From assembly GCA_030651475.1 (NCBI GenBank), contig JAUSEW010000021.1, positions 1,898-65,897 of the forward strand: a stretch of DNA of 64,000 nt. Direction: 5' to 3'. Numbering within the stretch: the first letter of the stretch is position 1; each line of letters opens with the position of its first letter. Source of the DNA: Candidatus Levyibacteriota bacterium. Lineage in GTDB: Bacteria; Patescibacteriota; Microgenomatia; Levybacterales; UBA12049. Shown here piece after piece: positions 7,800 to 63,848 of this stretch. The notes beneath the pieces are model-generated. The model saw nothing but the letters and a program-made list of their open reading frames with translations. It made no database searches and was not told the DNA's origin. The translations under genes and the position numbers were made by a program.

Positions 7800-7830
7800 C
7801 GGATAGTTGGGGAGCTCTTAATGTCTAGTT

Positions 7831-8199: not shown

Positions 8200-8220
8200 A
8201 CGCTTAGAAAACTAAACGCT
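8189..8220. repeat. Two copies of CTAAACGCT (right arm, reverse complement of the left arm)
   Basis: Seen directly at 8189-8197 (overlapping the stop codon) and 8212-8220. Together with 7776-7799 they bracket a 445-bp cassette. Confidence 0.7.
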
Positions 8221-8224
8221 AATT

Positions 8225-8569
8225 ATGAAGCTTGCACAATTTTCCTTACCAGGTTACCCAGATATAAAAGTTCCGAGCGATATACAAAATTTATCAGGAG
8301 GAGCTTATGGCGGCAGTTTAATTACAACAGCCCTGGCTATCCTTTTTGTTTTTGGAATTGTTTTGACAATTATTCTTCTAATCTATTCCGGCATCCAATG
8401 GGTCACATCCGAAGGAGACAAACAGAAGATACAGGCCGCACGATCAAGGCTTATTTATACGATAGTTGGATTTTTGATAATTGCCGGTTCACTTGTTATT
8501 GTAAGTGTAATCGTAAGATTACTTGGCGGAGATCCTAAATTTTTCTTAAATACCTCAAATACCCCTTGA
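8225..8569 (+). CDS. VirB2/TrbC-like T4SS pilin paralog
   Basis: Small protein with a TM helix followed by IYSGIQWVTSEGDKQKIQAARSRLIYTIVGFLIIAGSLVIV. The motif is shared with ORFs 8602, 9068, 9578 and the C-terminus of 6524. Confidence 0.6.
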   Translation: MKLAQFSLPGYPDIKVPSDIQNLSGGAYGGSLITTALAILFVFGIVLTIILLIYSGIQWVTSEGDKQKIQAARSRLIYTIVGFLIIAGSLVIVSVIVRLLGGDPKFFLNTSNTP

Positions 8570-8601
8570 CAAATAAATAGAATCTGCTTATTATAAGGTC
8601 A

Positions 8602-9012
8602 ATGAGGAAATCTTTAGGCTTTATTAGCGCTTTATCATTATATGCTAGCTCTGCCTTTTTAGCTATAGCACAAGGAGCAGCACCTAAGGGAGATGTTTCA
8701 ATACCGATAGTAGTTCCAACTGGCGCCCTTCCCTTAGACCTAGATATCGGTAAATTACCTCAATTTATCATAACCCTTCTTTTTATAGTTGGTGTTATTA
8801 TTGCTATCGCATTTTTAATTTACGGAGGTATTAAATGGGTTATGTCAGGCGGAGACAAAGCAGGAGTTGAGGCAGCCAGAAATCATATTGTTGCAGCCAT
8901 TATCGGGTTGGTAATAATTGCAGCAGCCTTCTTTATTATTCAGGTTGTTTTTAGACTTCTTGGAACATCTCTCGACATAAGCACGCTAACCATTCCCACC
9001 CTTAAACAATAA
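8602..9012 (+). CDS. VirB2/TrbC-like T4SS pilin paralog
   Basis: Signal peptide, then LIYGGIKWVMSGGDKAGVEAARNHIVAAIIGLVIIAAAFFII. It is near-identical at nucleotide level to the next paralog over ~110 bp. Confidence 0.6.
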   Translation: MRKSLGFISALSLYASSAFLAIAQGAAPKGDVSIPIVVPTGALPLDLDIGKLPQFIITLLFIVGVIIAIAFLIYGGIKWVMSGGDKAGVEAARNHIVAAIIGLVIIAAAFFIIQVVFRLLGTSLDISTLTIPTLKQ

Positions 9013-9067
9013 GAGCGCATCTTGATTTTAATTGATTTTCGTTTCTTGATTTGCTAAAGTAGTATTT

Positions 9068-9568
9068 GTGATACCGCTACCTATTATTCCTCCTCCTGGA
9101 AGCATTATTAATGCATCTTTGGAGAATATTCCCCAATTTATTATCCAGCTTATTTTTGTAATCGGAATTATTATTGCTATAGTTTTCTTAATTTATGGCG
9201 GTATTAAATGGGTACTATCGGGTGGAGATAAAACTGCTGTTGAAGCAGCAAGAAATCATATTGTTGCAGCAATTGTCGGGTTGGTAATAATTTTAGGATC
9301 CTTCCTTATCTTCTCTTTGGTTTTCCAGCTTCTCGGAGCGCAAAACCCGATTCTTGGTCGATCTTTGTGCATCCCTACCCTTAAAGATCCATTCTGTTTC
9401 CCTGCAGTTGCACCAACCCCTTCGGCAGGCTCAGGGCAAGCCGGAACTTCCTCTGTTAACCCATCTTTAAGCCCTACGCCTGCGAAGTTTCCGACAGTTT
9501 CCGGAGGATCGAATAATTCCTCTTCTTCAAAACAAAATCAAACTGACAAAACCAAAGGAGGATTATAA
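9068..9568 (+). CDS. VirB2/TrbC-like T4SS pilin paralog with a Pro/Ser-rich C-terminal tail
   Basis: GTG start. LIYGGIKWVLSGGDKTAVEAARNHIVAAIVGLVIILGSFLIF is followed by a low-complexity PTPSAGSGQAGTSS... tail. Confidence 0.55.
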   Translation: MIPLPIIPPPGSIINASLENIPQFIIQLIFVIGIIIAIVFLIYGGIKWVLSGGDKTAVEAARNHIVAAIVGLVIILGSFLIFSLVFQLLGAQNPILGRSLCIPTLKDPFCFPAVAPTPSAGSGQAGTSSVNPSLSPTPAKFPTVSGGSNNSSSSKQNQTDKTKGGL

Positions 9569-9577
9569 TACTTAAGT

Positions 9578-9889
9578 ATGACTCTTAAGGAATGCTTTAC
9601 TGGCGTTGATAAGGTAGGAACCCTTAACTGCATCCCTTATCTTTTCGAAAATGTTGTTACCGCAGCATTTCTTTTCGCCGGCATAATTGCGCTCATTTTT
9701 ATCATTCTTTCCGGGATTAAATTTTTAATGTCAGGCGGAGATCCAAAACAGCTCGAAGGAGCCAAAAATACCTTGACTTATGCTATCTTGGGATTTATTT
9801 TAATTCTTCTTTCTTTCGCAATCCTAAATTTTATCTCCGGAATTACCGGTGTCCCCTGCATTAAAGAATTCGGTTTTGGCAATTGCTAA
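9578..9889 (+). CDS. VirB2/TrbC-like T4SS pilin paralog
   Basis: ILSGIKFLMSGGDPKQLEGAKNTLTYAILGFILILLSFAIL. The C-terminus carries two Cys residues. Confidence 0.55.
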   Translation: MTLKECFTGVDKVGTLNCIPYLFENVVTAAFLFAGIIALIFIILSGIKFLMSGGDPKQLEGAKNTLTYAILGFILILLSFAILNFISGITGVPCIKEFGFGNC

Positions 9890-9952
9890 TACTACTTTGA
9901 CCTATTTTGATAATCTTGCAATGATATTTTTCACGTTATATGCTAGTCCTAT

Positions 9953-11173
9953 ATGGAGAATCATCCTATTCCCCAGGACGTAACTGGATTTCAGTTCAAG
10001 CTGATTGGGGATATGACCATCAAACAATTCGCCTATCTTATAACCGGCGTAATTATGGCGTGGATATTTTTCAGTCTGTCGATAACGTACTTTATTAAAA
10101 TTCCCTTTGCTTTTTTCTTTGGGCTATTTGGAGTTAGTCTGGCGTTTCTACCAATTGAAGGAAGACCAATGGATGTAATGATTGGAAATTTCCTCAAAGC
10201 TCTTTCTTCCCCAACCCAATACGTTTATAAAAAAACAGGCGTTCCTGTCTGGTCTCAAATACCTATTTATAGAAAAACTTTGCAGGGTCCAAGTTTGCAA
10301 ACCGTGAAACCGCAGGCAAGAGTTTTCCTGCAAACATCAATGAACATTCCCAAAAATGATTTAGACAAAAAAGAATTGAGTTTTTTCCAGTCTCTTTTTG
10401 GTCAGCAAAACGGTTCTTTCCCGCAAGCTCCTCAAAACACTCAAGCCGGATCTCCGGTTATAATAACTATGCACGATGATTCCAAGAAAGAAGAGCCGAA
10501 AAAAGAACCCGTAGTTGCTAATACGCAAACGGAGCCTATCGCAGAAAATGTTCTTCAGGAAAAAGCAGCTCTTTTGGAACGAGAGCTTCAAGCCGCCAAA
10601 GAGCAAGAAGCAAATTTACAAAAACAAGCTGTCCCAACCCAAGCTATTCACGAAAAAACCTTGGAATTGGAGAAGCAGCTTGCAGAGGTTCTTACGCAGA
10701 AAGAGCAGCTTACCGGCCAATTGATAAACTTACAGCAAAAACTGGATCAGCAAAAAAAGCAATTTTTTACTCCGGGAGTTGTAACTTCTCCAAAGATAGA
10801 AACCAAAAATGTAAAAAGTATCCCTGGACCCATGGGCAAAAGCGTTGGTCTTCCCATAACACCAGATGTTCCAAACCTTATAACCGGAATTCTCAAAAAT
10901 CCGAGAAATATGCCATTGCCTAATATTCTGGTTGAGGTAAAAGACAGCGAGGGAAATCCTGTCCGGGCATTTAAAACCAATTCCTTAGGACAATTTGCAT
11001 CAGCTACTCCTCTTCTGAACGGCACCTATACAATGGAATTTGAAGATCCCAAAGGAGAAAATAAATTTGACTTTATAGAAATAAAAGCCAATGGTGAAAT
11101 AATCTTACCAATAGAAGTTATCTCTATTGACACACGGGAAGAATTAAGGAAATCTCTTTTCGGAGAAGTATAG
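9953..11173 (+). CDS. PrgI/VirB3-like membrane protein with long coiled-coil and C-terminal beta-rich extension
   Basis: The N-terminus FQFKLIGDMTIKQFAYLITGVIMAWIFF... plus two TM helices resembles PrgI-family (VirB3-like) proteins. It is followed by a Q/E/K/L-rich coiled coil (LQAAKEQEANLQKQ...LINLQQKLDQQKKQ). It lies immediately upstream of VirB4. Confidence 0.45.
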   Translation: MENHPIPQDVTGFQFKLIGDMTIKQFAYLITGVIMAWIFFSLSITYFIKIPFAFFFGLFGVSLAFLPIEGRPMDVMIGNFLKALSSPTQYVYKKTGVPVWSQIPIYRKTLQGPSLQTVKPQARVFLQTSMNIPKNDLDKKELSFFQSLFGQQNGSFPQAPQNTQAGSPVIITMHDDSKKEEPKKEPVVANTQTEPIAENVLQEKAALLERELQAAKEQEANLQKQAVPTQAIHEKTLELEKQLAEVLTQKEQLTGQLINLQQKLDQQKKQFFTPGVVTSPKIETKNVKSIPGPMGKSVGLPITPDVPNLITGILKNPRNMPLPNILVEVKDSEGNPVRAFKTNSLGQFASATPLLNGTYTMEFEDPKGENKFDFIEIKANGEIILPIEVISIDTREELRKSLFGEV

Positions 11174-11176
11174 TTT

Positions 11177-11812
11177 ATGAAAAAATCTGCCCAAAAGACA
11201 CAGGCAACAACGCAAAAATTCATAGAGATACAGGATATTTCGGACAATATCGCCATACTTCCTTACGGCAATGCCTGTCTTATCATTGAAGTTATTGCTA
11301 CCAATTTCTCTCTTTTTTCCAAAGAAGAGCAGAATGCTAAAATTTTTGCCTATTCAACTTTACTCAATTCACTTTCGTTTCCTATCCAAATATTTATTTT
11401 AAGTAAAAGAGTTGACATATCGTCATATATTAAACTGTTGGACTGGGAAGAGAAGAAAACACAAAATGAGAAATTAGCCCATCAAATAGGCCTTTATAAA
11501 GAATTTGTCCGGGAGCTGGTTAAGGTAAACACTGTTTTGGATAAAAAGTTTTACATAGTTATTCCCTACTCATATCTTGAAAAAGGCCCAATTCAGCAAG
11601 GATCTTTTGCCGCTCAAGCCAAAACAGCTCTTCTAAGCAAAGCCCAAGTATTGCATTCCCAGCTCGCAACACTTAATCTTCGCGCCAGAACTCTTGCCAA
11701 AGAAGAATTAATAAATCTTTATTACGAAATTTATAATGCGGACTTGGGCACATCTTCAAATCCGCAAGAAAATGTAAGTACCGTATTTGTTAAAGGAGCA
11801 AAAACAATATGA
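11177..11812 (+). CDS. Probable N-terminal (membrane-proximal) domain of VirB4/TrbE encoded as a separate ORF
   Basis: 211-aa soluble protein whose stop overlaps the VirB4 ATPase start (ATGA at 11809-11812). The combined length (211+604 aa) matches full-length VirB4 (~800 aa). Inference from size and context, not from a recognised motif. Confidence 0.4.
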   Translation: MKKSAQKTQATTQKFIEIQDISDNIAILPYGNACLIIEVIATNFSLFSKEEQNAKIFAYSTLLNSLSFPIQIFILSKRVDISSYIKLLDWEEKKTQNEKLAHQIGLYKEFVRELVKVNTVLDKKFYIVIPYSYLEKGPIQQGSFAAQAKTALLSKAQVLHSQLATLNLRARTLAKEELINLYYEIYNADLGTSSNPQENVSTVFVKGAKTI

Positions 11813-13623
11813 CACCTGTGAATAACCTTAACCCAAGAAATCTTTCTTTGGAATCTTTGGAAAAAGGGATAAATTCTTTGGCTGATATTATCGCTCCTTC
11901 TTCCGTTGAAATAGATTTTAATTTCATCAGAGTGGGAGAAAGGTTTTATAAAACCTTTTTTGTTGTCGGGTATCCCCGATTTGTTTCTTCAAACTGGCTT
12001 TCTCCGGTTATCGATTTTGATCATTCTTTAAATATTTCGATGTTCATTTATCCGACATCTTCTTCTGATGTTTTAAACGATCTTCGGCGGAAAATCGCAG
12101 AAATGGAAGCATCTATTTCTTCCGAGGTTGAGTCGGGACGATCTCCTGATCCCAAAATAGAAGCAGCCTTAGAAGATGCACTTGGACTTCAACAGGAACT
12201 TGCAAGAGGAGTTGAAAGGTTTTTTCAATTTAGTTTATACATTACTATTTCTGCCGATAGCTTAAAAGATTTGGACGAAGCAGGGAAAAAACTTAGCTCA
12301 ACACTTTCTTCTCTTCTTATAGTTCCAAAAATCGCAACTCTTCAAATGGAAGACGGGTTCAAATCTTCTGTCCCGCTTGGCATAGATAAGCTTTATATAA
12401 CCAGAAATATGGACACAACCTCTTTGGCCTCAACTTTTCCCTTTACTTCTGCCATGCTAACTCAAGACAAAGGAGTTTTGTATGGCATAAATCAGCAAAA
12501 TGGATCTTTGATTATTTTTGACAGATTCTCTTTGGAAAATGCCAATGAGGTTGTGCTGGGAAAATCCGGATCGGGAAAATCTTTCTTGATAAAACTGGAG
12601 GCAATGCGGCAATTTATGTTTGGGACAGAAATAATAATAATCGATCCCGAAGGAGAATACGAAAGCCTGACAAAAACTCTTGGCGGAGAATATGTCGCCT
12701 TTACAACATCTTCTCCCATTAAGATAAACCCGTTTGATCTTTCCGGATTATATGAAGAGGGAGAAAATGAACTCGGACTTAAAATACTATCGCTTCGCGG
12801 GCTTTTGAAAATTGCCCTTGGGGAAATGAATGCCGCGCAAGATGCGATACTGGACAGAGCTCTGGTTGAAACATACAAAAATAAAGGCATAACTACAGAT
12901 CCTGCAACGCAAAAAAAAGAGCCTCCCCTTATGGAAGATCTCTACAAAACGCTTTCCCAAATAAAAGATGACAGCTCCCATGACTTAACACTCCGTTTGG
13001 AAAAATTTATTAAGGGAAGCTTAAGCGGAATATTTAATCAGCAATCCAACTTTAATATCCAAAATCCTCTGACAATTTTCTCTCTTAAAGGGCTTGAAGG
13101 AGAACTAATGCCTATTGCCATGCACATAGTTTTGGATTTTGTCTGGACAAGGGTCAGAAAAGATCTCAAAAAAAGACTGCTTATTTTGGATGAGGCTTGG
13201 TACATAATGAAATATCAAGATTCCGCGTCTTTTGTGTACGGGGTTGCAAAAAGGGCCAGAAAATATTATCTTGCTCTTACCACAATAACGCAGGATGTTC
13301 AGGATTTCCTTACAACCGATTACGGAAAGGCAATTTTGTCTAACTCGTCTATTCAAATTCTTCTTAAACAAAGTCCTACCGAAATCGATTCTATCGCAAA
13401 AGTTTTCTATTTTTCCTTAAGAGAAAAGGAATATTTACTTGCGTCAGGCGTTGGGGAAGGATTGTTTTTCGCAGGTCTTGCCCATGTTGGGCTAAAAGTT
13501 GTTGCGGCACCATTTGAAAAAGAAATAGTCACGTCAAATCCCGAAGATCTCAAGAAAATGCAGGAAGAAATATCGCAAAAAACAACCGAGCCACCAATTG
13601 TTAATCAAACAAAGAGCGTCTAA
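11809..13623 (+). CDS. virB4: VirB4/TrbE-family conjugative/T4SS ATPase
   Basis: Walker A VLGKSGSGKSF, Walker B LLILDEAWYIM and an overall VirB4 C-terminal ATPase architecture. Confidence 0.8.
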   Translation: MTPVNNLNPRNLSLESLEKGINSLADIIAPSSVEIDFNFIRVGERFYKTFFVVGYPRFVSSNWLSPVIDFDHSLNISMFIYPTSSSDVLNDLRRKIAEMEASISSEVESGRSPDPKIEAALEDALGLQQELARGVERFFQFSLYITISADSLKDLDEAGKKLSSTLSSLLIVPKIATLQMEDGFKSSVPLGIDKLYITRNMDTTSLASTFPFTSAMLTQDKGVLYGINQQNGSLIIFDRFSLENANEVVLGKSGSGKSFLIKLEAMRQFMFGTEIIIIDPEGEYESLTKTLGGEYVAFTTSSPIKINPFDLSGLYEEGENELGLKILSLRGLLKIALGEMNAAQDAILDRALVETYKNKGITTDPATQKKEPPLMEDLYKTLSQIKDDSSHDLTLRLEKFIKGSLSGIFNQQSNFNIQNPLTIFSLKGLEGELMPIAMHIVLDFVWTRVRKDLKKRLLILDEAWYIMKYQDSASFVYGVAKRARKYYLALTTITQDVQDFLTTDYGKAILSNSSIQILLKQSPTEIDSIAKVFYFSLREKEYLLASGVGEGLFFAGLAHVGLKVVAAPFEKEIVTSNPEDLKKMQEEISQKTTEPPIVNQTKSV

Positions 13624-13640: not shown

Positions 13641-13898
13641 ATGCCCGAACAAGAAGAAAAAAAACGAGGACATACTGGATTTATCAACGGAATCTTTAAT
13701 ACCCCAGGTACAGTAAAAACTGTATCGAGGTTAGGAAAAGTTATATTTAGTGCAGGTCCCGAAGTATGGATTGTTGTTGGGACTATTGTCGGAGTAGCCT
13801 TGCTCACGCTTCTAGTTTTATTTACTGTTACAGCATCCGTACCCATTCCCCAAACCCCTCCTACCCCCACAATCACTCTTCCCACACCAACCCCCTAA
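13641..13898 (+). CDS. Small membrane protein (one TM helix, Pro/Thr-rich tail), hypothetical
   Basis: 85 aa with TM segment WIVVGTIVGVALLTLLVLFTV, co-directional with and 17 bp downstream of virB4. An alternative antisense ORF 13625-13885 was rejected. Confidence 0.3.
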   Translation: MPEQEEKKRGHTGFINGIFNTPGTVKTVSRLGKVIFSAGPEVWIVVGTIVGVALLTLLVLFTVTASVPIPQTPPTPTITLPTPTP

Positions 13899-15025
13899 GC
13901 TTGAACCCTGATTGGCATTATTAGGTGAAGGAATGAATTGTCATTTTCAATTTTAAAAACCCCGGGATTAAGAGGGCCTGTCATTTCAAAAGCAATTCCT
14001 TCTTCTTCTACGTTAGACAAAATATCCAAAAGATAACGGGCGTTAAAGGCAATTTCATTTTCCTCCCCTTGCGTTTTTGCTTCTACCTCAATTGTGTTTT
14101 CCCCAACGGATGGTGTATTTGCGGAAACCACAACTTTATTCTTCAAAACGGAAATCTTAACTATACCCGCTGTTTCCTTGGAAAAAACATAACATGCTCT
14201 AACCGCCCGCAACATTTCCTCGCGGTTAAAAGAGGCCTTGGTTGAAAAATCTTGAGGAATTATCTTTTTATAATCAGGAAATTCCGCCTCGATAAGTCTT
14301 CCCACTAGCGTTATTTCCTCTTGGCAGAACATAATTTGGTTTTTCTCTTTTGAAACATAAACTTCCACATCTTCTCCATCTTTGCTAATCGAAATAATCT
14401 CCCTCACTACTCTTGCAGGAACAAGCATCGATACGCCTTCCTTAATCTTTTTAGTTTTTTCTTCTTTGGCGATATTCTTTTTTAGAGAAAGTCTATATCC
14501 ATCTGTTGCAACGAATAAAAATCCCAAACCGTCTTCTCCTACAGCGCTCTCCACCAGAACCCCTGATAGGGCTGTTCTTGATTGATCTTGACCCGCCGCA
14601 AAAACCACTTTCCCAAAATCATTAACTATATCCTCTTTTTTTATCATCATTACCTTTTCCCCTTTTTCTTCATATATTTTCGGGAACTCTTCCGAGGGAA
14701 TAGTTTGAAAAAGTGTTTTTATTTTTTCTCCCTTTAGTTCCAATCCTTCTTTTGTTGTGTTTAATGAAATTTTTCCTGAAGGTATGTTGTTCAAAAGCTC
14801 CAGGAAGGTTTTTGCGGGAACGGTTATCGATCCCTCCTCTTCTATTTTCGCCTGGATTTGTACTTCTATTCCTATTTCAAGGTCAGTAGCGCTAATATAT
14901 AGTTTCCCCTCCTTAGCTTTTATTAAAAAATTGGAAAGTATCGGTAACTGCGATCTTGTTGACGTAGCATGGCTTACCAGTCCTAATTTATTTTGCAAGT
15001 TTTCAGAAAGCAGTTGAACGATCAT
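13895..15025 (-). CDS. dnaN: DNA polymerase III beta subunit (sliding clamp)
   Basis: 376 aa. The N-terminus MIVQLLSENLQNKLGLVSHATSTRSQLPILSNFLI... is typical of DnaN. It sits immediately downstream of dnaA. Confidence 0.9.
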   Translation of the reverse strand: MIVQLLSENLQNKLGLVSHATSTRSQLPILSNFLIKAKEGKLYISATDLEIGIEVQIQAKIEEEGSITVPAKTFLELLNNIPSGKISLNTTKEGLELKGEKIKTLFQTIPSEEFPKIYEEKGEKVMMIKKEDIVNDFGKVVFAAGQDQSRTALSGVLVESAVGEDGLGFLFVATDGYRLSLKKNIAKEEKTKKIKEGVSMLVPARVVREIISISKDGEDVEVYVSKEKNQIMFCQEEITLVGRLIEAEFPDYKKIIPQDFSTKASFNREEMLRAVRACYVFSKETAGIVKISVLKNKVVVSANTPSVGENTIEVEAKTQGEENEIAFNARYLLDILSNVEEEGIAFEMTGPLNPGVFKIENDNSFLHLIMPIRVQA

Positions 15026-15108
15026 ATTGAATTAAGATTTATTTATTTGTAGTTGTAGTAGTCTATATGGAAAAGTGGAAAAAAGCAAGAGGGGGAAGCT
15101 AAATAACA

Positions 15109-15117
15109 TGTGGATAA
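15109..15117. promoter_or_regulatory. Perfect DnaA box (TGTGGATAA = reverse complement of TTATCCACA) in the dnaA-dnaN intergenic region
   Basis: Exact 9-mer seen at 15109-15117. The surrounding region is AT-rich. Confidence 0.7.
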
Positions 15118-15159
15118 CCTGTTGAAAAGAATGGGGGTAAAAGATTAAAAAAATAAAAC

Positions 15160-16527
15160 TCAAGACCGGTGTTGATAATAATCTTTTAGAGATGATGTTA
15201 TCCCCATCATTTCCTCCGAGAATTTCTTATCCTCAAGAAGTTTTTCTATTTTTCCTACACCGTGCATAATTGTAGTGTGGTCTCTCCCTCCCAGAAAGTT
15301 TCCTATCTCTACGAGACTTAAGGAAAGCTCCTTTTTTAAGAGATACATGGCAATATGGCGGGCTTTTACAAGCCTGGCGTCACGTTTTTGTCCTTTTATT
15401 TGGGTGGACTTGATGTCATAAAAGTCACAGATGTTTTCTATGATGTCGTCGGGATGAGGCTGGGATTTGTCTTTTTCTCCGTTTTTTCCCAAAACTTCCA
15501 AAATAAGGGATGGTGTGATTTCTAGCCCTCTTACTTGTGCTTCGGTAACAATTCTCAAAAGGCTTCCTTCCAATCCTCTTGCGTCCTGTTCCTTTTCCGC
15601 AATTTTCTTAGCAACATCCATTGAAAGATCCAACCCATACTTTTTTGCCTTAATAAGTACAATGGCTGTTCTTAATTCAAAATCTTGCGGTTCAATATCA
15701 ACGATAAGCCCTCCGGAGAAACGCGAGGAAAGTCTTTTCTCAATTTTTTTTATTTCAAACGGCGGTCTGTCTGAAGAAAGAACTACTTGGGCTCCTGCAT
15801 CAACAAGAATATTAAAAGTGTGGAAAAGTTCCTCCTGTACTTTTTCTTTTCCTGCGAAAAACTGAACGTCGTCAATGATAAGAAGGTCAATATTTCTGAA
15901 TTTTCTCTTCATTCTCGCCGTATCATTTGTTCTAATTGCTTCAACTATCTCATTAGTAAACTCTTCGCTGGTGATATAGATAATTTTTTTATTTGGATCT
16001 CTTTGGTAAAGATCATTGGCAATTGCTTGCATCAGATGAGTCTTTCCTACTCCAACAGGTCCGTAGATAAAAAGAGGATTGTAGGATCCCCCCATTTTTT
16101 TAGCTACAGTAGTTGCGCTAACGAAAGCTAATTGATTACTAGGAGATACTGCCATGGTTTGGAATGTATATTCAGGTCGAACTCTTGGTAAATGTCCAAC
16201 TGTAATTTCTTTTTTTGCCACATTTCCGATATTTTCAAAAAGAGGAGCATCATACTTGCGGTTTACGTTTTGATCAATGATCTTTGGGACGAAAACAATT
16301 TTCGTGTTCGCGCTCGTATGCTTATCAACGGTTTTCTTTAAAATAGCGTAAAAACGTTTTTGTATAAGGTCAATTATCATCGTTGAAGATGCGGCTATGG
16401 TCGCTACTCCGTTTTCAAATGATAAGAGTCCTGTGGTTTTAAAAAGAGTTAGGAAATTTGCTCTTGATACTTCTGTCTCTATGTCCCCTAAAACTTTTTT
16501 CCACAATTTATTGTTTTCTTCGTTCAT
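15160..16527 (-). CDS. dnaA: Chromosomal replication initiator DnaA
   Basis: AAA+ Walker A GPVGVGKTHLMQAIAN, Walker B LLIIDDVQF and a C-terminal DNA-binding domain (...KARHIAMYLLKKELSLSLVEIGNFLGGRDHTTIMHGV). Confidence 0.95.
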   Translation of the reverse strand: MNEENNKLWKKVLGDIETEVSRANFLTLFKTTGLLSFENGVATIAASSTMIIDLIQKRFYAILKKTVDKHTSANTKIVFVPKIIDQNVNRKYDAPLFENIGNVAKKEITVGHLPRVRPEYTFQTMAVSPSNQLAFVSATTVAKKMGGSYNPLFIYGPVGVGKTHLMQAIANDLYQRDPNKKIIYITSEEFTNEIVEAIRTNDTARMKRKFRNIDLLIIDDVQFFAGKEKVQEELFHTFNILVDAGAQVVLSSDRPPFEIKKIEKRLSSRFSGGLIVDIEPQDFELRTAIVLIKAKKYGLDLSMDVAKKIAEKEQDARGLEGSLLRIVTEAQVRGLEITPSLILEVLGKNGEKDKSQPHPDDIIENICDFYDIKSTQIKGQKRDARLVKARHIAMYLLKKELSLSLVEIGNFLGGRDHTTIMHGVGKIEKLLEDKKFSEEMMGITSSLKDYYQHRS

Positions 16528-30865: not shown

Positions 30866-31888
30866 ATGGCAAACCATAAGGTATCAGGAGTGGATGATTT
30901 ATTAAAAAGATTGACAGAAAAGAAGAAGAAATTAGACGGTTTTAGACCGTTATCTTCAGCATTGGCTATTAACCTTGGAGAATGGTTTAAGGTAGAGCTG
31001 ACCTACACATCTAATGCAATAGAAGGTAACACTTTAACGAGAAAAGAGACGGCGCTTGTGGTTGAGGAAGGTATAACAGTAAGAGGTAAGACGCTTAAAG
31101 AACACTTGGAAGCGATAAATCACGCAGAAGCATTGGATTTTATAAAAGAGCTTGTTAGTAAAAAACGAAAAGATTTAACAAGACGAGAGGTTTTAGATAT
31201 TCACGCTCTAATACTTAAAAAAATTGACGATGATAATGCGGGACGATACAGAAGCATAGAAGTACGAATTAGCGGGTCAAATATTATATTGCCTGACCCT
31301 ATAAAAGTGCCAGAGCTTATGGAAGGTTTTTTTAAATGGCTTCATTCAAAAAACATAGACCATCCTGCAAAAATAGCGGCTGATGCGCATTTTAAGTTGG
31401 TTTCGGTACATCCTTTTTCTGACGGTAACGGTAGAACTGCACGGCTTCTTTTGAACTTACTTTTGATGCAAAAGGGCTATCCGCCAGCTCTTGTAAGAAA
31501 AGAGGACAGAGATTTATATATAAATAGCATTGAAAAAGCACAACTTAGTGGAGATTTTGACGATTATTACATAGTTATCTACAGAGCCATTGACCGCTCG
31601 TTTGATATTTATCTGGAGGCAGTAAAGAGAAAAACGCTTAAGACCTCTTCTGTCGTGCAAAAAAGATTGCTTAGGATAGGGGAACTGGCAAAAGAGACAG
31701 GAGCGACATTAAATGCGATACGGCATTGGACTGAAAAAGGGTTAATTGAAGTAGCGGAGCATACATCGGCGGGCTATCAGTTATTCGACCGTTCTATGGC
31801 TGAGAGAATAAAAGAGATAAGACGATTGCAAAAAGAAGAGCGGCTGACTATAGCTGAGATTAAAAGAAAATTGGACAGTGTGCTATAA
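30866..31888 (+). CDS. Fic/Doc-family protein fused to a C-terminal MerR-like HTH
   Basis: Canonical Fic motif HPFSDGNGRTARLL. The C-terminal RIGELAKETGATLNAIRHWTEKGLIEVAEHTSAGYQLFD resembles a MerR-type HTH. Confidence 0.75.
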   Translation: MANHKVSGVDDLLKRLTEKKKKLDGFRPLSSALAINLGEWFKVELTYTSNAIEGNTLTRKETALVVEEGITVRGKTLKEHLEAINHAEALDFIKELVSKKRKDLTRREVLDIHALILKKIDDDNAGRYRSIEVRISGSNIILPDPIKVPELMEGFFKWLHSKNIDHPAKIAADAHFKLVSVHPFSDGNGRTARLLLNLLLMQKGYPPALVRKEDRDLYINSIEKAQLSGDFDDYYIVIYRAIDRSFDIYLEAVKRKTLKTSSVVQKRLLRIGELAKETGATLNAIRHWTEKGLIEVAEHTSAGYQLFDRSMAERIKEIRRLQKEERLTIAEIKRKLDSVL

Positions 31889-37668: not shown

Positions 37669-37800
37669 TAATAATAGCATTATTATAAAATTAAAACTGC
37701 GCAACAAAACCGGCACTTGACCCATTCGGCTTGGCTCAGGCCGTTCGAGGCTCTGAGGAGCCCTCAGGCTCTGAACGAGGTCTTGACAAATCGTCTCAAA

Positions 37801-38874
37801 ATGATACGATTAGTATATATGAATGATTCGATTCTAACCCCAAGACAAAAATATATTCTGAATTTAATTAGCCAATCAGAGGGGCTGTTGCGTGAGCAAA
37901 TCCAAAATGAAATTCAAGAAATCTACCCTTCTTCAAAACCAACCTTGGTGAGGGACCTAAACATTCTTTTAAAATACGGTTTTATTAAATTCGAAGGTAA
38001 GGCAAGAGCGACAAAATATTTGCCTAAAGTATTAAACCGACTTCTTCGTAAGTTTGACACTGAAAGATATTTTGCCGATGATCCGGATAAACGTATAGGA
38101 GCAAGAAAAACTTTCGACTTTAAAATACTTGAAGACTTGCATGATCTTTTTTTGCAAGACGAAATGGAAGTTCTCAAGAAAATATGTCGCAGTTTTAAAC
38201 AGCAAACATCTAAGTTAAATCCGGATCTTTTAAAACGGGAGCTTGAAAGATTTGCGATTGAATTGTCATGGAAATCTTCAAAAATTGAAGGTAATACATA
38301 CACTCTTTTAGAGACAGAATCTTTAATTAAAGAGCAAAAGGAGGCTGTTGGAAAAACCAAAGAAGAAGCAATAATGATATTAAATCATAAAATTGCTTTT
38401 GAAGAAATATTGAAAAATAAAGATGATTTTAGTGTTATTTCTATTACGCAAATTAACCAATTGCATAATATTTTAATTAAAGACTTAAATGTTACAAGCG
38501 GCATTAGGAAGCAGGCGGTTGGGATTACGGGCACAGCATATCAGCCGTTAGATAATGAACACCAAATAAGAGAAGTTTTTGAAAAAACAATAAGTATTAT
38601 AAATAGAACTAAAAACCCATTTGAAAAAGCGTTAATCGCTCAATTTATGATTGCGTACATTCAGCCATATTCTGATGGTAACAAGAGAACAGCAAGAATG
38701 TTTACAAATGCAATTTTATTAGCCCATGACCTATACCCTTTATCTTATCGGAGCGTAGATGAAGATAGTTTTAAAAAAGGTTTAATTCTATTCTACGAGC
38801 AAAGCAGCATCTGTGAAATAAAACAGTTATTTATTGAACAAGTCATATTTGCCAATGAAACATATTTTAGATAA
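37801..38874 (+). CDS. Fic-family protein (variant Fic motif), carried on an inserted segment
   Basis: Fic motif QPYSDGNKRTARMF (HxFx(D/E)GNGR variant with Q/Y). The track ORF starts at 37717, but the extension overlaps a GC-rich structured leader. The probable start is ATG 37801 or 37819. Confidence 0.7.
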   Translation: MIRLVYMNDSILTPRQKYILNLISQSEGLLREQIQNEIQEIYPSSKPTLVRDLNILLKYGFIKFEGKARATKYLPKVLNRLLRKFDTERYFADDPDKRIGARKTFDFKILEDLHDLFLQDEMEVLKKICRSFKQQTSKLNPDLLKRELERFAIELSWKSSKIEGNTYTLLETESLIKEQKEAVGKTKEEAIMILNHKIAFEEILKNKDDFSVISITQINQLHNILIKDLNVTSGIRKQAVGITGTAYQPLDNEHQIREVFEKTISIINRTKNPFEKALIAQFMIAYIQPYSDGNKRTARMFTNAILLAHDLYPLSYRSVDEDSFKKGLILFYEQSSICEIKQLFIEQVIFANETYFR

Positions 38875-59173: not shown

Positions 59174-59198
59174 TCTCCTCGGAATGAGGAGTTTTTTT
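59174..59198 (+). terminator. Rho-independent terminator-like hairpin
   Basis: TCTCCTC-ggaat-GAGGAG followed by TTTTTTT (59192-59198). Confidence 0.5.
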
Positions 59199-59241: not shown

Positions 59242-60300
59242 ATGGTTGAACGACAATCCTTGGCATTTAGACACGAATTTTACGAAGAGGCAAAAGAACA
59301 CCAAATAAGAGACGATCTTGTTTCTTATCTTGGAGAGTATAGGTTTGAGGTATCGGAATTCAATTATAGGCTAGGTATCTCTAACGGGATTTTGGTAGAT
59401 CCAAATACAGGTGAATCAATGAGTCTGAAAGCAAAAAGGGCAATAGAATTCAAAAGAAGACGCGGTTTAAATACCTCAAGAGAAGAAGCAGAATTTGAGG
59501 GATTTATTAATCTTGAGCAAGGCCTTTCTAAAAAACCTTTTGGTGTTGCTGTTTGGCTTAGTCCGCCTGGTCAAAAAGCAGAAGGTTGTGGTGATTATGG
59601 TTTCGCATTCGTTGGCAAAAGAAATGGTAACGAATTAGAGATGACGGCAATAAGGCTCGAAAATCCAACAATTAACGATTTTAATAAGGCTGCAAATGCT
59701 TTGTGGGGCGAAAAAGGGTACGAAAAAGTAGAGGATTTGTTAAGACAGCCAATGGTAATAGATATCTCTTTGGACAAAGTTAAAGAATTTATTCACGGAA
59801 ATTTTGAGATAAAAGATGAGCAAAGCAAAACAATTTTTGGAAAAGCCTTGGATAAATTGAGCGGAATAATCGATGAGGTAGCTCTAATTATTAAAACCGG
59901 AACTTCGGAACAAAAACAAAAAGCATTTCATACACTAGAAAATTTAGCGATTGAGCTTAAAGAAAGATTAGGGGCTCTTTTTAAAGAAAATGTTATTTTT
60001 ATGTCGGATTATAGAATATCCAAGCTTGCTACTTTTATGGGAATAGATAGATATACAAACAAGCCTAAGCTAGTTGCGGGAAGCTGCGGAAGCACATCAG
60101 ACAGAAACTCATTGAATAGTAGCAATGTCTTTTCTAAATATTCTTCTTTAAATGGTTTATTGTCATTATCAGAAGATAATGAATGGTTTACTTGTCCGAA
60201 GTGTAATTATAAAGCAACCGGTCCTGTTGGAGATGAATGCCCTAAGTGTCACATTACTAAAGAAGAATTTGCAGAATCAGGCGCAGAAGTTTGTGATTGA
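59242..60300 (+). CDS. Hypothetical protein with C-terminal zinc ribbon
   Basis: 352 aa. The C-terminal CPKCNYKATGPVGDECPKCH is a C4 zinc ribbon. The N-terminal 300 aa has no motif I recognise. Confidence 0.45.
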   Translation: MVERQSLAFRHEFYEEAKEHQIRDDLVSYLGEYRFEVSEFNYRLGISNGILVDPNTGESMSLKAKRAIEFKRRRGLNTSREEAEFEGFINLEQGLSKKPFGVAVWLSPPGQKAEGCGDYGFAFVGKRNGNELEMTAIRLENPTINDFNKAANALWGEKGYEKVEDLLRQPMVIDISLDKVKEFIHGNFEIKDEQSKTIFGKALDKLSGIIDEVALIIKTGTSEQKQKAFHTLENLAIELKERLGALFKENVIFMSDYRISKLATFMGIDRYTNKPKLVAGSCGSTSDRNSLNSSNVFSKYSSLNGLLSLSEDNEWFTCPKCNYKATGPVGDECPKCHITKEEFAESGAEVCD

Positions 60301-60734
60301 TACCTCTATTTTTAAATGTGCTATCATTATGTTGTATGGTAGACAATACAAATTCTGCGCAAAAAACAACTGTAAGTTCGGATCAGACAAATTATAGTCC
60401 TGCTTCAGGTTCAATGGTGAAAGAAGCGGAGCCTGCAATAATTTCGGCTCCGGAAGCTAAAGCACAGCCGGAAATTCCACCAAGTCTTGAAGCAGAACTT
60501 GAGAAAGCAAAAGAAAGTGTTTCCGCGCAACCACCAGCAAATCAGCAGGGAGTTATAAAAACATCTAGAGATGAAATTTTGCCTCAACAAGAATCTTCTG
60601 AAATTGAAGAATCAAGGAGAAGATTACAGCAAATTGAGAGTACTAAGAAAACAAGCAGTACCAGCGATTCAGTATATTGGCTGCACAAACTATTGAAAAA
60701 ATTTTTTGAACAGCTTGGTTTAAAAGACAAATAA
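60297..60734 (+). CDS. Hypothetical low-complexity (S/T/E/P/Q-rich) protein
   Basis: 145 aa. Start overlaps the upstream stop (ATGA). Probably disordered. Confidence 0.35.
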   Translation: MIPLFLNVLSLCCMVDNTNSAQKTTVSSDQTNYSPASGSMVKEAEPAIISAPEAKAQPEIPPSLEAELEKAKESVSAQPPANQQGVIKTSRDEILPQQESSEIEESRRRLQQIESTKKTSSTSDSVYWLHKLLKKFFEQLGLKDK

Positions 60735-60741
60735 TTAATAT

Positions 60742-63114
60742 ATGCAAACATCTTCTTTTGGTAATTTAGGCAGTCTTTTGACCTCTTTGGTGCTTGGAAT
60801 TATAGGTGCGGTAGTTCTTGTGATAGGTATTTATTGGGGATTTTATCTATTATTCCTTTGGATTAAGCACCGAAACCGCGAAAAAGAATCTCTGAATTCA
60901 GTTCTTTTGCAAGTTGCAGTGCCACGAGACAATGAGATTAAAATTGATGCGGCAGAGCAACTTTTCTCCGCTTTAGCATCAATAAGAAAAGGAGGAAGAT
61001 TTTCTTCTTTAAGTCCCCAACCTCAATTATCATTTGAAATAGTAGGTCTTCCGGGAAGTATCCGTTTTTTTGTCCATACGCCAAAAAATCTTCAGGATTT
61101 GATTGAAAAACAAATAAACGGCGTTTATCCGGATGCAGAAATAAAAATTATCGAGGATAAAGATTTTGGGCAAAAGCAATTTCTGGTAGGCAATGAATAT
61201 AATATTTTCTCCGAAAATGGAAGAGTTGCCTTCGCGTCTTTGAAACTAAAGTCCTTAGATTATCAGCCGATAAAAGTTTTCAAAGATTTGCCGGTTGATC
61301 CGCTTTCCTCAATTACTTCCATACTTGCCAAAATGATAGAAGGGGAAGGAGCGGCGATACAAATAATGGTGAGTCCTGCAGATGATCAGTGGAAAAAGGC
61401 AGGACGCGCGCATATTACTAAAGTCAAAAAAGCCGAAGCTAATCCGGAAACTGCCAAATATTCCGCTGACCCCAAAGAATTGGAGGCAATAGAGAATAAA
61501 ATTTCCAAGCCCGGTTTTAATGTTGTTGTCAGAATGGTTGTTTCCTCAAGTACGATTGAATCTGCGAAAGCCCACCTTAGCAATATCAAAAGCGCATTTA
61601 GCCAATTTAACGGCATAAATTCATTTACCAGCAATAAGCATATCTTTAAAGGCGCGTTCGCCAATGACTTTATCTATCGATATATGCCAATGCGGGGCCA
61701 AACTTCGATTTTGACAAGCGAAGAGCTAGCGACGATTTTCCATTTTCCCAACAAAGCGATTACAACTCCGCATATACTTTGGATTACTTCCAAAAGAGCG
61801 CCGGCTCCTATGCAGACTCCAACCAGCGGACTTTATTTGGGTAAAAGTACATATCGGGGACTGGCGAAGCCTGTGTATATGAGTTTGGATGATCGAAGAA
61901 GACATATGTATATCATTGGGAAAACAGGTACCGGGAAAAGCGAGTTTCTAAAAGCGATGATTATGCAGGATATTAAAAACGGAGAAGGGTTGGCTGTTAT
62001 CGACCCTCATGGAGATTTAATCGAAGATATGCTGCCGCTTATTCCTCCAAGCCGGGCAGAAGATGTCATACTTTTTGATCCATCGGACACCGCCAGACCA
62101 ATGGGTTTAAATATGCTTGAAGCCCAAACAGAAGAACAAAAGCACTATGTTGTTTCTTCGATTATAGGGCTTATGTACAAGCTTTTTGATCCGAATAAAA
62201 CAGGTATCATCGGTCCTCGTTTTGAGCATGCGATAAGAAATGCTATGTTAACGGTTATGTATGAAGAGGGAAGTACTTTCGTTGAGGTAGTAAGAATTTT
62301 AACGGATGCAAATTTCGTACAAGAACTTCTGCCAAAAGTTTTAGATCCGATTGTGAGACGTTACTGGACAGATCAAATTGCCCAAACATCTGATTTTCAT
62401 AAGTCCGAAGTCCTGGATTACATCGTTTCCAAGTTTGGCAGATTTGTTACGAATAAAATGATTAGGAATATCATTGGACAATCTTTAAGCTCTTTTAACT
62501 TCAGGAAAGTTATGGATGAAAAGAAAATATTGCTGATTAATTTATCGAAAGGAAAAATTGGAGAAGAGAACTCAAACTTCTTAGGACTTGTAATTGTTCC
62601 GAAGATTTTAGTTGCGGCAATGTCAAGGCAGGATATGCCAATGGCGAGCCGGCGTGATTTCTTTCTTTATGTTGATGAGTTCCAGAATTTCGCGACTCCT
62701 GATTTCGCCCAGATTCTTTCAGAAGCCCGTAAATACAGACTTAATTTAATTGTTGCGAATCAGTTTATAGGGCAAATGGAAGAGGAAGTAAAAAATGCCA
62801 TTTTTGGCAATATCGGAACTCTGGCTTCCTTTAGAGTCGGAGTAACGGATGCAAATTATCTACAGCATGAATTTCAGCCTGTATTTGCGGAAGCGGATTT
62901 AATAAATGTTGAAAGATACAATACATATGTAAAAACAATTGTTAACGGCGAGCCGGTTACGCCATTTTCTATGGATTTGACTCGGGATATGAGTAAGGAA
63001 AAGGCCCTAGCAAATCCTCGAGTTGCGGAATTAGTTCGGGAATTATCGCGCCTTAAATATGGAAAAGATGCAGCCGCAGTTGAAGCAGTAATCTCTCAAC
63101 GCGCGAGGCTCTAA
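60742..63114 (+). CDS. Membrane-anchored P-loop ATPase, VirD4/TraG-type coupling-protein-like (FtsK/HerA superfamily)
   Basis: N-terminal TM pair (LVLGIIGAVVLVIGIYWGFYLLFLWI), Walker A IIGKTGTGKSEF and Walker B LYVDEFQNFATP. Downstream ARKYRLNLIVANQFIGQM (R-finger/Q motif) is typical of T4 coupling proteins and DUF87/HerA-like ATPases. Confidence 0.55.
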   Translation: MQTSSFGNLGSLLTSLVLGIIGAVVLVIGIYWGFYLLFLWIKHRNREKESLNSVLLQVAVPRDNEIKIDAAEQLFSALASIRKGGRFSSLSPQPQLSFEIVGLPGSIRFFVHTPKNLQDLIEKQINGVYPDAEIKIIEDKDFGQKQFLVGNEYNIFSENGRVAFASLKLKSLDYQPIKVFKDLPVDPLSSITSILAKMIEGEGAAIQIMVSPADDQWKKAGRAHITKVKKAEANPETAKYSADPKELEAIENKISKPGFNVVVRMVVSSSTIESAKAHLSNIKSAFSQFNGINSFTSNKHIFKGAFANDFIYRYMPMRGQTSILTSEELATIFHFPNKAITTPHILWITSKRAPAPMQTPTSGLYLGKSTYRGLAKPVYMSLDDRRRHMYIIGKTGTGKSEFLKAMIMQDIKNGEGLAVIDPHGDLIEDMLPLIPPSRAEDVILFDPSDTARPMGLNMLEAQTEEQKHYVVSSIIGLMYKLFDPNKTGIIGPRFEHAIRNAMLTVMYEEGSTFVEVVRILTDANFVQELLPKVLDPIVRRYWTDQIAQTSDFHKSEVLDYIVSKFGRFVTNKMIRNIIGQSLSSFNFRKVMDEKKILLINLSKGKIGEENSNFLGLVIVPKILVAAMSRQDMPMASRRDFFLYVDEFQNFATPDFAQILSEARKYRLNLIVANQFIGQMEEEVKNAIFGNIGTLASFRVGVTDANYLQHEFQPVFAEADLINVERYNTYVKTIVNGEPVTPFSMDLTRDMSKEKALANPRVAELVRELSRLKYGKDAAAVEAVISQRARL

Positions 63115-63215: not shown

Positions 63216-63848
63216 TTAATACCATTCTATTTCCCCGCTGGTTGATCTAGCTGGAGTCTTAGCATATAACTCACCAAGAAACTTATCCATACGTCCTGGT
63301 ATCTTTAATTCTTGCGTTTTAAGTTTGGTTGCATGAGAAGGATAATCTTTAGGATAATCTTGGTAAGAAAACATACGGGTCGACATACCGCCTATTTCTT
63401 CAGGATTGGAACAACCCAGTATAATAACGTTACTTATGCCATGATAATCATATCTAGGTTTTTTAAAAGGCGTACCTTTAGTTCCCACAGTCCAAAAATT
63501 ATATCTAAATATTAAGAAAGCTGTAGGCAAAACCCTATTTCTGTCTTCTATATAAGAATTCTTTTCTATCTCTCCTATTGCAATTTCCTTAATGGGATTT
63601 TCCCGATCTGTTTTAACAAGCGTTTTAGCAGCTGCAACATTCGCAACAATCAAGGTTTTATCTAATCTAATTTTATTCTCTGACCCCTGTCGTAGAATAG
63701 GATTTGCTAAAATAGATTGTCTAAGCTGTTCAAACAATTGTACCGCTCCACTTGCAACCAGTGTCCCCATAAGTTCCTTGCCCTTCTCCCATTCTGTTGG
63801 ATCAGGACGCTCATTATTATTCTTTGATATAAATTCAGTCAATCCCAT
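63216..63848 (-). CDS. Hypothetical protein (210 aa)
   Basis: ORF with no motif I recognise. Confidence 0.4.
   Translation of the reverse strand: MGLTEFISKNNNERPDPTEWEKGKELMGTLVASGAVQLFEQLRQSILANPILRQGSENKIRLDKTLIVANVAAAKTLVKTDRENPIKEIAIGEIEKNSYIEDRNRVLPTAFLIFRYNFWTVGTKGTPFKKPRYDYHGISNVIILGCSNPEEIGGMSTRMFSYQDYPKDYPSHATKLKTQELKIPGRMDKFLGELYAKTPARSTSGEIEWY

Follow-up and report, generated by a model that had tools for sequence, protein, structure and literature searches.

The candidate phyla radiation (CPR), or Patescibacteria, makes up a large share of bacterial diversity, mostly thought to live attached to other cells. In Southlakia epibionticum, the sole genetically tractable CPR species, the type IV secretion system (T4SS) is essential. 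Transposon insertion sequencing (Tn-seq) and annotation tables for strain ML1 record an essential T4SS cluster and two core, Patescibacteria-enriched genes resembling type IV coupling proteins (T4CPs), SEML1_0142 and SEML1_0293; the T4SS itself was stated to be without recognizable coupling and relaxase proteins (PMC10633639). SEML1_0142 (1,019 amino acids [aa], no Pfam match) is essential, as is SEML1_0141 (139 aa), which lies 13 bp upstream, and the same tables include SEML1_0096, an essential FtsK of canonical build (4TM, alpha, motor, and gamma domains) (PMC10633639). A 2025 survey of Patescibacteria T4SSs discussed only the non-essential ML1 homolog and left open the exaptation of Patescibacteria T4CP homologs to other functions (PMC12102498). 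Here, we analyzed a 64,000-nucleotide (nt) stretch, hereafter the window, of a Candidatus Levybacteria (CPR/Patescibacteria) chromosome near oriC. In this window, an earlier reading of the DNA (the original prediction) had proposed an operon of three genes encoding a Zn-ribbon protein, a disordered protein, and a membrane-anchored VirD4/FtsK-like ATPase.

A six-frame open reading frame (ORF) scan of the window returned all three genes where they had been predicted on the + strand, namely, 59242 to 60300, encoding a 352-aa Zn-ribbon protein; 60297 to 60734, encoding the small middle protein; and 60742 to 63114, encoding a 790-aa membrane ATPase of the DUF8128/VirD4-VirB4 type (MDO8621057.1). 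The Zn-ribbon protein and the ATPase each have a 100% identical counterpart on a 112-kb contig of a Levybacteria metagenome-assembled genome. The conserved unit that emerged from our analyses is smaller than this trio. It is well supported that the small disordered protein and the ATPase constitute a CPR-wide two-gene module, whereas the Zn-ribbon gene is a lineage-specific neighbor in a variable slot, confined to some Microgenomates, and no core component. It is likewise well supported that the ATPase belongs to the VirD4/VirB4/HerA branch of the FtsK-HerA superfamily and mixes features of both T4SS ATPases. The 4-nt overlap predicted between the first two genes holds with a TTG start at 60297 (145 aa) but is uncertain because the public gene call of the identical contig starts at ATG 60336, which yields a 132-aa protein (60336 to 60734) and a 35-nt gap.

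The ATPase had been described as an N-terminal transmembrane (TM) pair, an unknown domain of about 330 aa, and Walker motifs plus a T4CP-like Q/R motif. We confirmed the Walker A motif GKTGTGKS (aa 393 to 400, nt 61918 to 61941), the Walker B motif FFLYVDEFQNF (aa 640 to 650, nt 62659 to 62691), and an ANQFIGQ motif (aa 672 to 678, nt 62755 to 62775) within a P-loop domain at aa 364 to 745 (nt 61831 to 62976). The TM pair, in contrast, proved to be a single 33-residue hydrophobic stretch at aa 9 to 41 (nt 60766 to 60864), modeled by AlphaFold2 (AF2) as one helix (aa 8 to 43), and the unknown domain was already cataloged as Pfam DUF8128 (PF26449; aa ~53 to 335, nt 60898 to 61746). The PF26449 assignment is the precomputed Pfam annotation of a protein 100% identical to the window ATPase (P0001), and the domain is also listed for all 120 listed ATPase homologs. 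The AF2 model (predicted local distance difference test score, 87.7), which was built on a 57-sequence alignment, consists of the N-terminal helix, an alpha/beta DUF8128 domain, and a RecA-like domain interrupted by an all-helical insertion of eight helices (aa 464 to 592, nt 62131 to 62517); conserved C-terminal helices follow at aa 750 to 788 (nt 62989 to 63105). The insertion is highly conserved, with K564, F568, and Q580 invariant. The basic stretch KHRNREKE after the hydrophobic helix conforms to the positive-inside pattern and thus suggests a cytoplasmic orientation of DUF8128 and the P-loop domain, and the ATPase presumably forms a ring.

Profile searches connected the P-loop domain to T4CPs. 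Three Pfam models matched above their cut-offs: PF10412 (TrwB_AAD_bind; 34.5 versus 20.5, covering profile positions 10 to 98 of 387), PF02534 (T4SS-DNA_transf; 25.8 versus 20.1), and PF12696 (TraG-D_C; 24.8 versus 22). The best NCBIfam models were T4CP families, SXT_TraD (1.7e-14) and a CD1115 VirD4-like family (5.9e-13, aa 380 to 694), and TrwB and DotL were the best sequence matches in PDB. Among VirB4 models, neither PF03135 (CagE_TrbE_VirB) nor PF19044 (TraG P-loop) matched, and TIGR00929 reached 16.8 bits versus 643. Foldseek with the ATPase model nonetheless placed full-length TrwK/VirB4 on top (~880 aligned columns, E value of 2.6e-16), and in the fold ranking, VirB4, TrwB, and HerA were nearest and FtsK was clearly more distant. 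We also aligned the family profile with the VirB4 protein of the window by hhalign, which matched aa 242 to 718 to VirB4 residues 127 to 540 (probability, 84%; E value of 8e-6). Because aa 242 to 335 are paired with VirB4 residues 127 to 220, similarity to the closing part of the VirB4 N-terminal domain is seen in the last third of DUF8128; the preceding two-thirds had no match, including to the 211-aa ORF in the TrsD position of the window T4SS cluster. A grouping with housekeeping FtsK/SpoIIIE, part of the outcome that the original prediction had set against itself, was not found: the FtsK model PF01580 scored 22.5 bits across 33 residues, under its cut-off of 24. This score, the fold ranking, and the separate essential FtsK in a CPR genome rule out housekeeping FtsK as the identity of the ATPase.

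The ATPase has more than 7,800 homologs, of which Levybacteria copies are 76 to 82% identical. Searches with the N-terminal 370 residues alone retrieved 2,107 representatives (50% clustering), always at the N terminus of proteins of ~790 to 1,100 aa, and together with the AF2 model and the hydrophobicity of 83 members, they indicate a common layout of helix, DUF8128, and P-loop domain. From at least 600 loci in a one-genome-per-species scan, we kept the best 80, no two of which share an assembly, predicted ORFs across all loci, and grouped the neighboring genes by clustering. These 80 loci derive from Levy-, Woese-, Davies-, Roizman-, Shapiro-, Dojka-, WWE3, Sacchari-, Berkel-, Uhr-, Magasanik-, Falkow-, Staskawicz-, and Peribacteria. 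A neighbor-joining tree of the ATPase genes tracks CPR taxonomy, and the family appears to be CPR-wide and vertically inherited. Many third-party-assembled metagenome-assembled genome records with this CPR-specific ATPase carry titles such as "uncultured Gammaproteobacteria," "Bathyarchaeia," "Limisphaerales," or "Methylomirabilota" (e.g., L008, L010, L013, L014, L017, L033, and L051); these titles are taxonomically unreliable.

A protein 79% identical to the window ATPase (P0037) bears the accessions KKQ28445.1 and KKQ42894.1. These are the sole T4CP entries (t4cp1, not near virB4) of two Levybacteria genomes in Table S3 of the 2025 survey, and the T4SS clusters of both genomes are without a T4CP gene (PMC12102498). 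Because the survey already counted the family among T4CP homologs, the ATPase is of a cataloged but uncharacterized kind. The suggestion that it might be of an unrecognized type was therefore not borne out, as NCBI annotates the ATPase and Pfam holds its N-terminal domain.

We next turn to the partner of the ATPase. S, E, K, A, Q, and P are abundant in the middle protein, which comprises a long low-complexity region of disorder type, a C-terminal amphipathic helix, SVYWLHKLLKKFFEQLGL (nt 60669 to 60722), and a basic tail, with pairwise conservation confined to the C terminus. It belongs to the "WL-helix" ORFs, a Microgenomates family located immediately upstream of the ATPase gene. Across 72 evaluable species-level loci, 52 contained a qualifying small ORF (90 to 320 aa, same strand, <200 nt upstream of the ATPase gene) versus 32% for control genes (Fisher P = 2e-10), and the fraction of disorder-type residues was 0.72 in the small upstream ORFs versus 0.56 in controls (P = 3e-20). 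These ORFs fall into at least four sequence families: the "WL-helix" type of Microgenomates and Dojkabacteria, a Parcubacteria type with the motif "WLKxIPGVNxFFxEQEAKIKTDKI," a "DPYILD" type, and the "DDPY" type of Saccharibacteria. All four families have a common plan in which a short C-terminal helical module follows the long low-complexity region. It is well supported that the small partner is a fast-evolving protein whose disordered region precedes a C-terminal module ending in a Trp-containing amphipathic helix.

In two independent genomes, the module of the small protein is fused in frame to the ATPase (L040, 233 to 2773; L042, 7521 to 10262). Both of these ATPases have no hydrophobic helix and start with a disordered stretch and a module of the form "LxPE(D/E)...RWLxxhhERxxKK," which sits ~25 residues before DUF8128, at the usual position of the membrane helix. 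A module described by "LPhTxEE...S.RWLxxhhxRhhKK" is common to separate small ORFs and the N termini of the two fused ATPases. As Rosetta-stone evidence, these fusions point to a joint function of the small protein and the ATPase. Because the fused module replaces the membrane helix, its placement suggests that the partner helix acts at the membrane-proximal N terminus of the ATPase.

A link to essentiality is provided by Saccharibacteria. In one locus of this group (L071, 7155 to 18110), with the same order in L066, L077, and L086, genes for a 115-aa small TM protein, a 145-aa "DDPY" protein, and a 991-aa DUF8128 ATPase are followed by two genes on the opposite strand (189 and 631 aa), gyrB, and gyrA. 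The sizes and orientations of these genes match SEML1_0140 to SEML1_0146 gene for gene, and this Saccharibacteria clade carries PF26449. No ML1 protein was among the top 120 matches listed for the L071 ATPase, and the connection to ML1 is one of synteny. By this synteny with SEML1_0141/0142, at least one branch of the family and its small partner are essential in S. epibionticum, which alone among CPR organisms has genome-wide data. The clade of the SEML1_0142 type is among the best 80 relatives of the window ATPase, and an SEML1_0293-like locus is absent from those 80. We dropped the idea that SEML1_0293 represents a fusion of the L042 type, since published Pfam coordinates place its P-loop at ~aa 402, which does not suit a fusion of that length. 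In the literature searched, we found no account of DUF8128, SEML1_0141, SEML1_0142, or SEML1_0293 beyond the Tn-seq tables.

The Zn-ribbon protein has the predicted C-terminal CxxC...CxxC arrangement, as CPKC-x11-CPKC at aa 318 to 336 (nt 60193 to 60249), which forms a Cys4 rubredoxin-like knuckle. Its AF2 model (predicted local distance difference test score, 83) places an alpha/beta domain (aa 12 to 190, nt 59275 to 59811) and a long helical hairpin (aa 194 to 249) before a flexible linker with an invariant G-S-C-G motif (aa 280 to 283, nt 60079 to 60090) and the knuckle. In an alignment of 77 homologs, E32-Y33-R34, S107 (in SPPG), R138, and G280-S281-C282 were invariant, as were C318, C321, and C336 of the knuckle, with C333 at least 90% conserved. 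Profile searches weakly linked the Cys4 domain to the rubredoxin domain of rubrerythrin and nigerythrin, and the large N-terminal domain and the rest of the protein matched no fold or family. Only 103 relatives were detectable, versus more than 7,800 for the ATPase. An initial profile search found the family in very few ATPase loci, and iteration added divergent homologs in L010, L012, and L025, bringing the count to 5 of the 80 species-level loci. Three of these have the gene upstream on the same strand (L008, L010, and L012); in the others, it is on the opposite strand, either two genes upstream (L025) or ten genes away (L021). We therefore rejected the Zn-ribbon protein as a conserved ATPase partner, and the neighborhood analysis does not sustain the trio as a conserved unit.

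The window contains a chromosomal CPR-type T4SS cluster (6524 to 13623, + strand) that adjoins dnaN and dnaA. It comprises four T4SS_pilin genes, one of which encodes a 414-aa protein with a C-terminal T4SS_pilin domain; a PrgI/VirB3-like gene whose product is fused to a CarboxypepD_reg domain; the 211-aa ORF at the position where the 2025 survey found TrsD (PMC12102498); and VirB4 (11809 to 13623, + strand; PF19044 match at 3.8e-29). No coupling ATPase was found within this cluster. The original prediction, which correctly put the trio 47 kb from VirB4, had suggested that the ATPase could be the missing coupling protein. We find this idea reasonable because the ATPase is the only T4CP-type gene of two Levybacteria genomes whose T4SS clusters have none; the VirD4-like profile matches agree with it, while the distance from the T4SS and the equivalog scores given below do not. 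On these grounds, and given the parallel essentiality in ML1, we favor at close to an even chance a model in which the ATPase and its partner are an adaptor-assisted coupling/translocation ATPase serving the chromosomal CPR T4SS in trans. In such a model, the ATPase would be anchored in the cytoplasmic membrane with DUF8128 and the P-loop domain in the cytoplasm and would assemble into a ring at the membrane. The amphipathic helix of the partner may dock beside the ATPase anchor or in place of it, and the disordered arm could then recruit or regulate a substrate, cargo, or another machine component. ATP hydrolysis would deliver or pull a polymer, either protein or DNA, through the chromosomal CPR T4SS, for which the cluster at 6524 to 13623 is the candidate partner in trans.

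Several observations weigh against this model. The ATPase lies 47 kb from the T4SS cluster, the window contains no relaxase gene, and canonical T4CPs contain nothing equivalent to DUF8128. The NCBIfam equivalog models for T4CPs all scored far under their cut-offs (TIGR03743, 53 versus 366; NF045973, 48.5 versus 250). In the 2025 survey, 148 of 5,713 Patescibacteria T4CP homologs were near virB4, and T4CP homologs were present in 2,918 of 3,035 genomes and VirB4 in 2,417 (PMC12102498). From these last two counts, many genomes may have the ATPase without a T4SS, with genome incompleteness as a confounder. The neighbors of the ATPase gene are housekeeping genes, namely, an xerC-like gene and divIC in Microgenomates, dnaX in Parcubacteria, and gyrBA in Saccharibacteria. 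With regard to the partner, the four families have no mutual homology (hhalign probabilities all <2%), and physical contact with the ATPase is suggested by gene order and the two fusions. The ML1 parallel is itself ambiguous. The second ML1 paralog, SEML1_0293 (921 aa), is non-essential (PMC10633639), and T4CP profiles detect the Levybacteria ATPase and SEML1_0293 and miss SEML1_0142; either SEML1_0142 or SEML1_0293 may be the true ortholog of the single Levybacteria gene.

Many of these observations would also fit a T4SS-independent housekeeping motor of the CPR membrane, descended from conjugation ATPases and acting in chromosome handling (segregation, dimer resolution, or repair), perhaps with the XerC-like protein, or in another essential envelope process. 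We consider this alternative possible but rather unlikely. It agrees with a core, highly conserved, and apparently vertically inherited ATPase gene, with a family found in more genomes than VirB4 and almost never beside virB4, with recurrent synteny with xerC-like genes (20 loci), divIC, dnaX, and gyrBA, and with the exaptation raised in the 2025 survey (PMC12102498). The unusual conservation of the helical insertion, including its three invariant residues, suggests a conserved ligand over a plasmid-specific relaxosome. However, S. epibionticum already has its canonical essential FtsK (SEML1_0096), an ftsK is annotated in TM7x too, and the ATPase fold is nearer to VirB4 and TrwB than to FtsK. 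Furthermore, housekeeping neighbors are to be expected by default in genomes of <1 Mb whose gene order is conserved, and the xerC-like gene is encoded on the opposite strand. Since ML1 survives comEC deletion, DNA uptake alone would not account for the essentiality of SEML1_0142. We regard it as highly improbable that the region is a defense system, as the original prediction had alternatively proposed, or the remnant of a conjugative element or prophage. PADLOC mad8 matched the P-loop domain at 2e-15 (aa 373 to 685), with weak HerA and DndH matches of ~40 residues, but these are generic P-loop matches, no partner genes of such systems are present, and neither of the other two proteins has a PADLOC or PHROGs match. 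Similarly, phrog_5156 (unknown function, 824-position profile), which may stem from true phages or from miscalled CPR prophages, matched aa 247 to 786 of the ATPase (E value of 2.9e-89), and a tyrosine recombinase gene lies downstream in related loci; yet this recombinase is the conserved XerC-like chromosomal gene of the 20 loci, all kept loci are from different assemblies, and the gene tree tracks taxonomy. IMG/VR contigs (L092 to L103) gave only P-loop-level relatives with 23 to 36% identity, apart from one full-length match at 23% (L096). Only housekeeping genes surround the trio, Pfam scans found no relaxase, integrase, or phage gene among the window ORFs, and the G+C content of the window is unremarkable. 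Given the absence of such genes, the normal G+C content, and the distant viral-contig relatives, we rejected a mobile element or prophage despite the strong phrog_5156 match.

Two further alternatives concern the Zn-ribbon gene. That all three genes are one functional unit, with the Zn-ribbon protein as an integral, co-transcribed part that might assist the ATPase by binding nucleic acid or metal, seems quite improbable to us. The genes are co-directional with short gaps, a terminator-like site is upstream of the first gene only, and the order recurs across six loci of Levybacteria type (the window, L004, L006, L088, L089, and L091). Larger, Cys-rich, divergent Zn-ribbon homologs occupy position -2 or -3 on the same strand in L010 and L012. 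In addition, Roizmanbacteria-like loci (L002 and L090) retain a Zn-ribbon gene adjoining a WL-helix small ORF after PduO, but there the ATPase gene is elsewhere. Beyond the low count of 5 of 80 loci, the slot is empty in L009, L019, and L027, where PduO leads straight to the small ORF, and it is filled in L013 and L014 by unrelated proteins of 632 and 662 aa. The most constant neighbor of the Zn-ribbon gene is the PduO adenosyltransferase gene, not the ATPase gene. Thus, because the slot is variable and the Zn-ribbon gene occurs without the ATPase, the three-gene arrangement is clade-level synteny and no conserved module. With PduO, a gene of the B12-dependent ribonucleotide reductase (RNR) cluster, as its steadiest neighbor, the Zn-ribbon protein might instead belong with NrdR, NrdJ (the B12-dependent RNR), and PduO as a rubredoxin-type electron carrier or cobalamin-handling factor that inherited its adjacency to the ATPase. 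This speculative proposal is improbable in our estimation, if somewhat less so than a three-gene unit. The gene directly follows PduO in the window, L004, L006, L010, L025, L088, L089, and L090, its Cys4 domain is akin to the rubredoxin domain found in rubrerythrin and nigerythrin, and L002 and L090 have a thioredoxin gene after the Zn-ribbon/small-ORF pair. On the other side, a terminator-like hairpin stands between the Zn-ribbon gene and PduO in the window, the L021 copy is far from the ATPase gene and on the opposite strand, the large N-terminal domain matches no fold or family, and the synteny is that of one clade only.

The trio lies directly downstream of genes for NrdR, class II RNR (NrdJ), and PduO, and the Microgenomates block in general runs RNR, PduO, variable slot, small ORF, ATPase, xerC-like gene (opposite strand), and divIC. 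The terminator proposed before the trio corresponds to a terminator-like hairpin, CTCCTCG-GAA-TGAGGAG (59175 to 59191, + strand), followed by T7 up to 59197 and positioned between the NrdR-NrdJ-PduO genes and the trio. The site matches the consensus and no more than that, and terminator-like sites in the scan as a whole are no more frequent than in shuffled sequence (4 found versus 4.6 expected). The class II RNR gene upstream of the module in L088 (1271 to 4849) carries an intein with a LAGLIDADG endonuclease domain. The two slot proteins of L013 (5643 to 7541) and L014 (5504 to 7492) share a C-terminal hydrophobic motif, "W.LL.II..L..IREQGM," and are not matched by the Zn-ribbon profile. Convergent with the ATPase gene is a 210-aa ORF (63216 to 63848, - strand) without a Pfam, NCBIfam, PADLOC, or PHROG match; related loci have the xerC-like recombinase gene in its place.

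Because dnaN and dnaA (13895 to 16527, - strand) coincide with a cumulative GC-skew minimum at 14 to 16 kb, the window spans the replication origin region, for which yidC is a further marker. The remaining scanned ORFs are housekeeping genes, such as ruvABC and genes for penicillin-binding proteins and glycolysis, and the window holds no tRNA and no Rfam family. Within the T4SS cluster, a four-helix protein resembling 23S-rRNA-IVP/bAvd (7831 to 8199) is encoded between pilin genes. The cluster is flanked by two large ORFs without a Pfam match (187 to 5172 and 5267 to 6427; 573 aa [+] and 1,085 aa [-]), beside which lies an AAA_14/DUF4143 ATPase. Two Fic-domain proteins (30866 to 31888 and 37717 to 38874), the first fused to a MerR-type helix-turn-helix, bracket ruvA, ruvB, a P-type ATPase, and a YifB-like Mg-chelatase ATPase.

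Taken together, the original prediction is confirmed in what it observed and supported in part in how it read it: the locus is no new three-gene system, no defense island, and no mobile element, and the gene and its DUF8128 domain were already cataloged. The disordered partner, the anchor-replacing fusions, and the synteny-based membership of SEML1_0141/0142 in the family are not described in the literature searched. The stronger proposal that the DUF8128 ATPase and its disordered partner are an essential, trans-encoded, and so far unrecognized coupling or energizing unit of Patescibacteria T4SSs is tentative, and we judge it plausible rather than probable. If it is true, the argument that CPR T4SSs cannot move DNA for want of a coupling protein falls, and T4CPs gain a new architecture with a VirB4-like N-terminal domain and a disordered adaptor able to replace the membrane anchor. 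A two-gene unit that is core to CPR, tied to essentiality data, and testable in S. epibionticum is thereby offered as a candidate loader or motor, and the view of the Zn-ribbon gene as part of the module is dismissed as a false lead.

Among known systems, the FtsK/SpoIIIE DNA translocases have a membrane anchor, a ring form (presumed for the window ATPase), and the superfamily in common with the window ATPase, and an xerC-like gene is nearby in related genomes; however, the window ATPase has no 4TM, alpha, or gamma domain, and PF01580 remains below its cut-off. Pairs of a T4CP and a small accessory protein, such as Cagbeta-CagZ of Helicobacter pylori (PDB 8dol), TrwA-TrwB of R388, and TraM-TraD of F, offer a precedent for the partner. 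In contrast to CagZ, TrwA, and TraM, the window partner is mostly disordered, and the fusions suggest docking at the N-terminal membrane-proximal end of the ATPase rather than at the helical domain or a C-terminal tail. SEML1_0141/0142, the only experimental datum for the ATPase family, has the same arrangement of a DUF8128 and P-loop ATPase preceded by a small disordered ORF on the same strand. Saccharibacteria ATPases nevertheless differ from the window ATPase, to which they are ~39% identical, in a C-terminal extension of ~200 aa and in being missed by Pfam T4CP models. Their partners are of the "DDPY" rather than the "WL-helix" family, and ML1 has a second, non-essential paralog, SEML1_0293, whereas Levybacteria apparently have a single gene.

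Relative to the T4SS ATPases, the window protein occupies an intermediate position. In layout, it resembles VirB4 (TrwK of R388, aligned over ~880 columns, and the C-terminal domain of Thermoanaerobacter VirB4, PDB 4ag5), with an N-terminal domain joined to a C-terminal ATPase; unlike VirB4, it is matched by no VirB4 model, and a bona fide VirB4 accompanied by PrgI/VirB3-like and TrsD-position genes is encoded 47 kb away. With VirD4, TrwB, and TraD, it shares an N-terminal anchor and a cytoplasmic P-loop domain whose Walker A and Walker B motifs are separated by a helical insertion, and this all-alpha insertion in the nucleotide-binding domain is one of the features expected of T4CPs. TrwB aligns with the window ATPase in the Walker A region and in the Q-x3-Q motif that follows Walker B, and the family is caught by the CONJScan t4cp1 profile in the literature. 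Canonical T4CPs have two membrane helices, whereas the window ATPase has one hydrophobic helix, and ~280 aa of DUF8128 lie between this anchor and the P-loop, so that the anchor is not directly followed by the nucleotide-binding domain. The window ATPase is also chromosomal, core, and apparently vertical, with no relaxase or adjoining T4SS genes and with a highly conserved helical insertion. Considering its extra domain, the missing linkage to relaxase and T4SS genes, the scores below the equivalog cut-offs, and the lack of a VirB4 model match, the family is best described as a CPR-specific variant of the T4SS ATPases that belongs to neither the VirD4 nor the VirB4 family.

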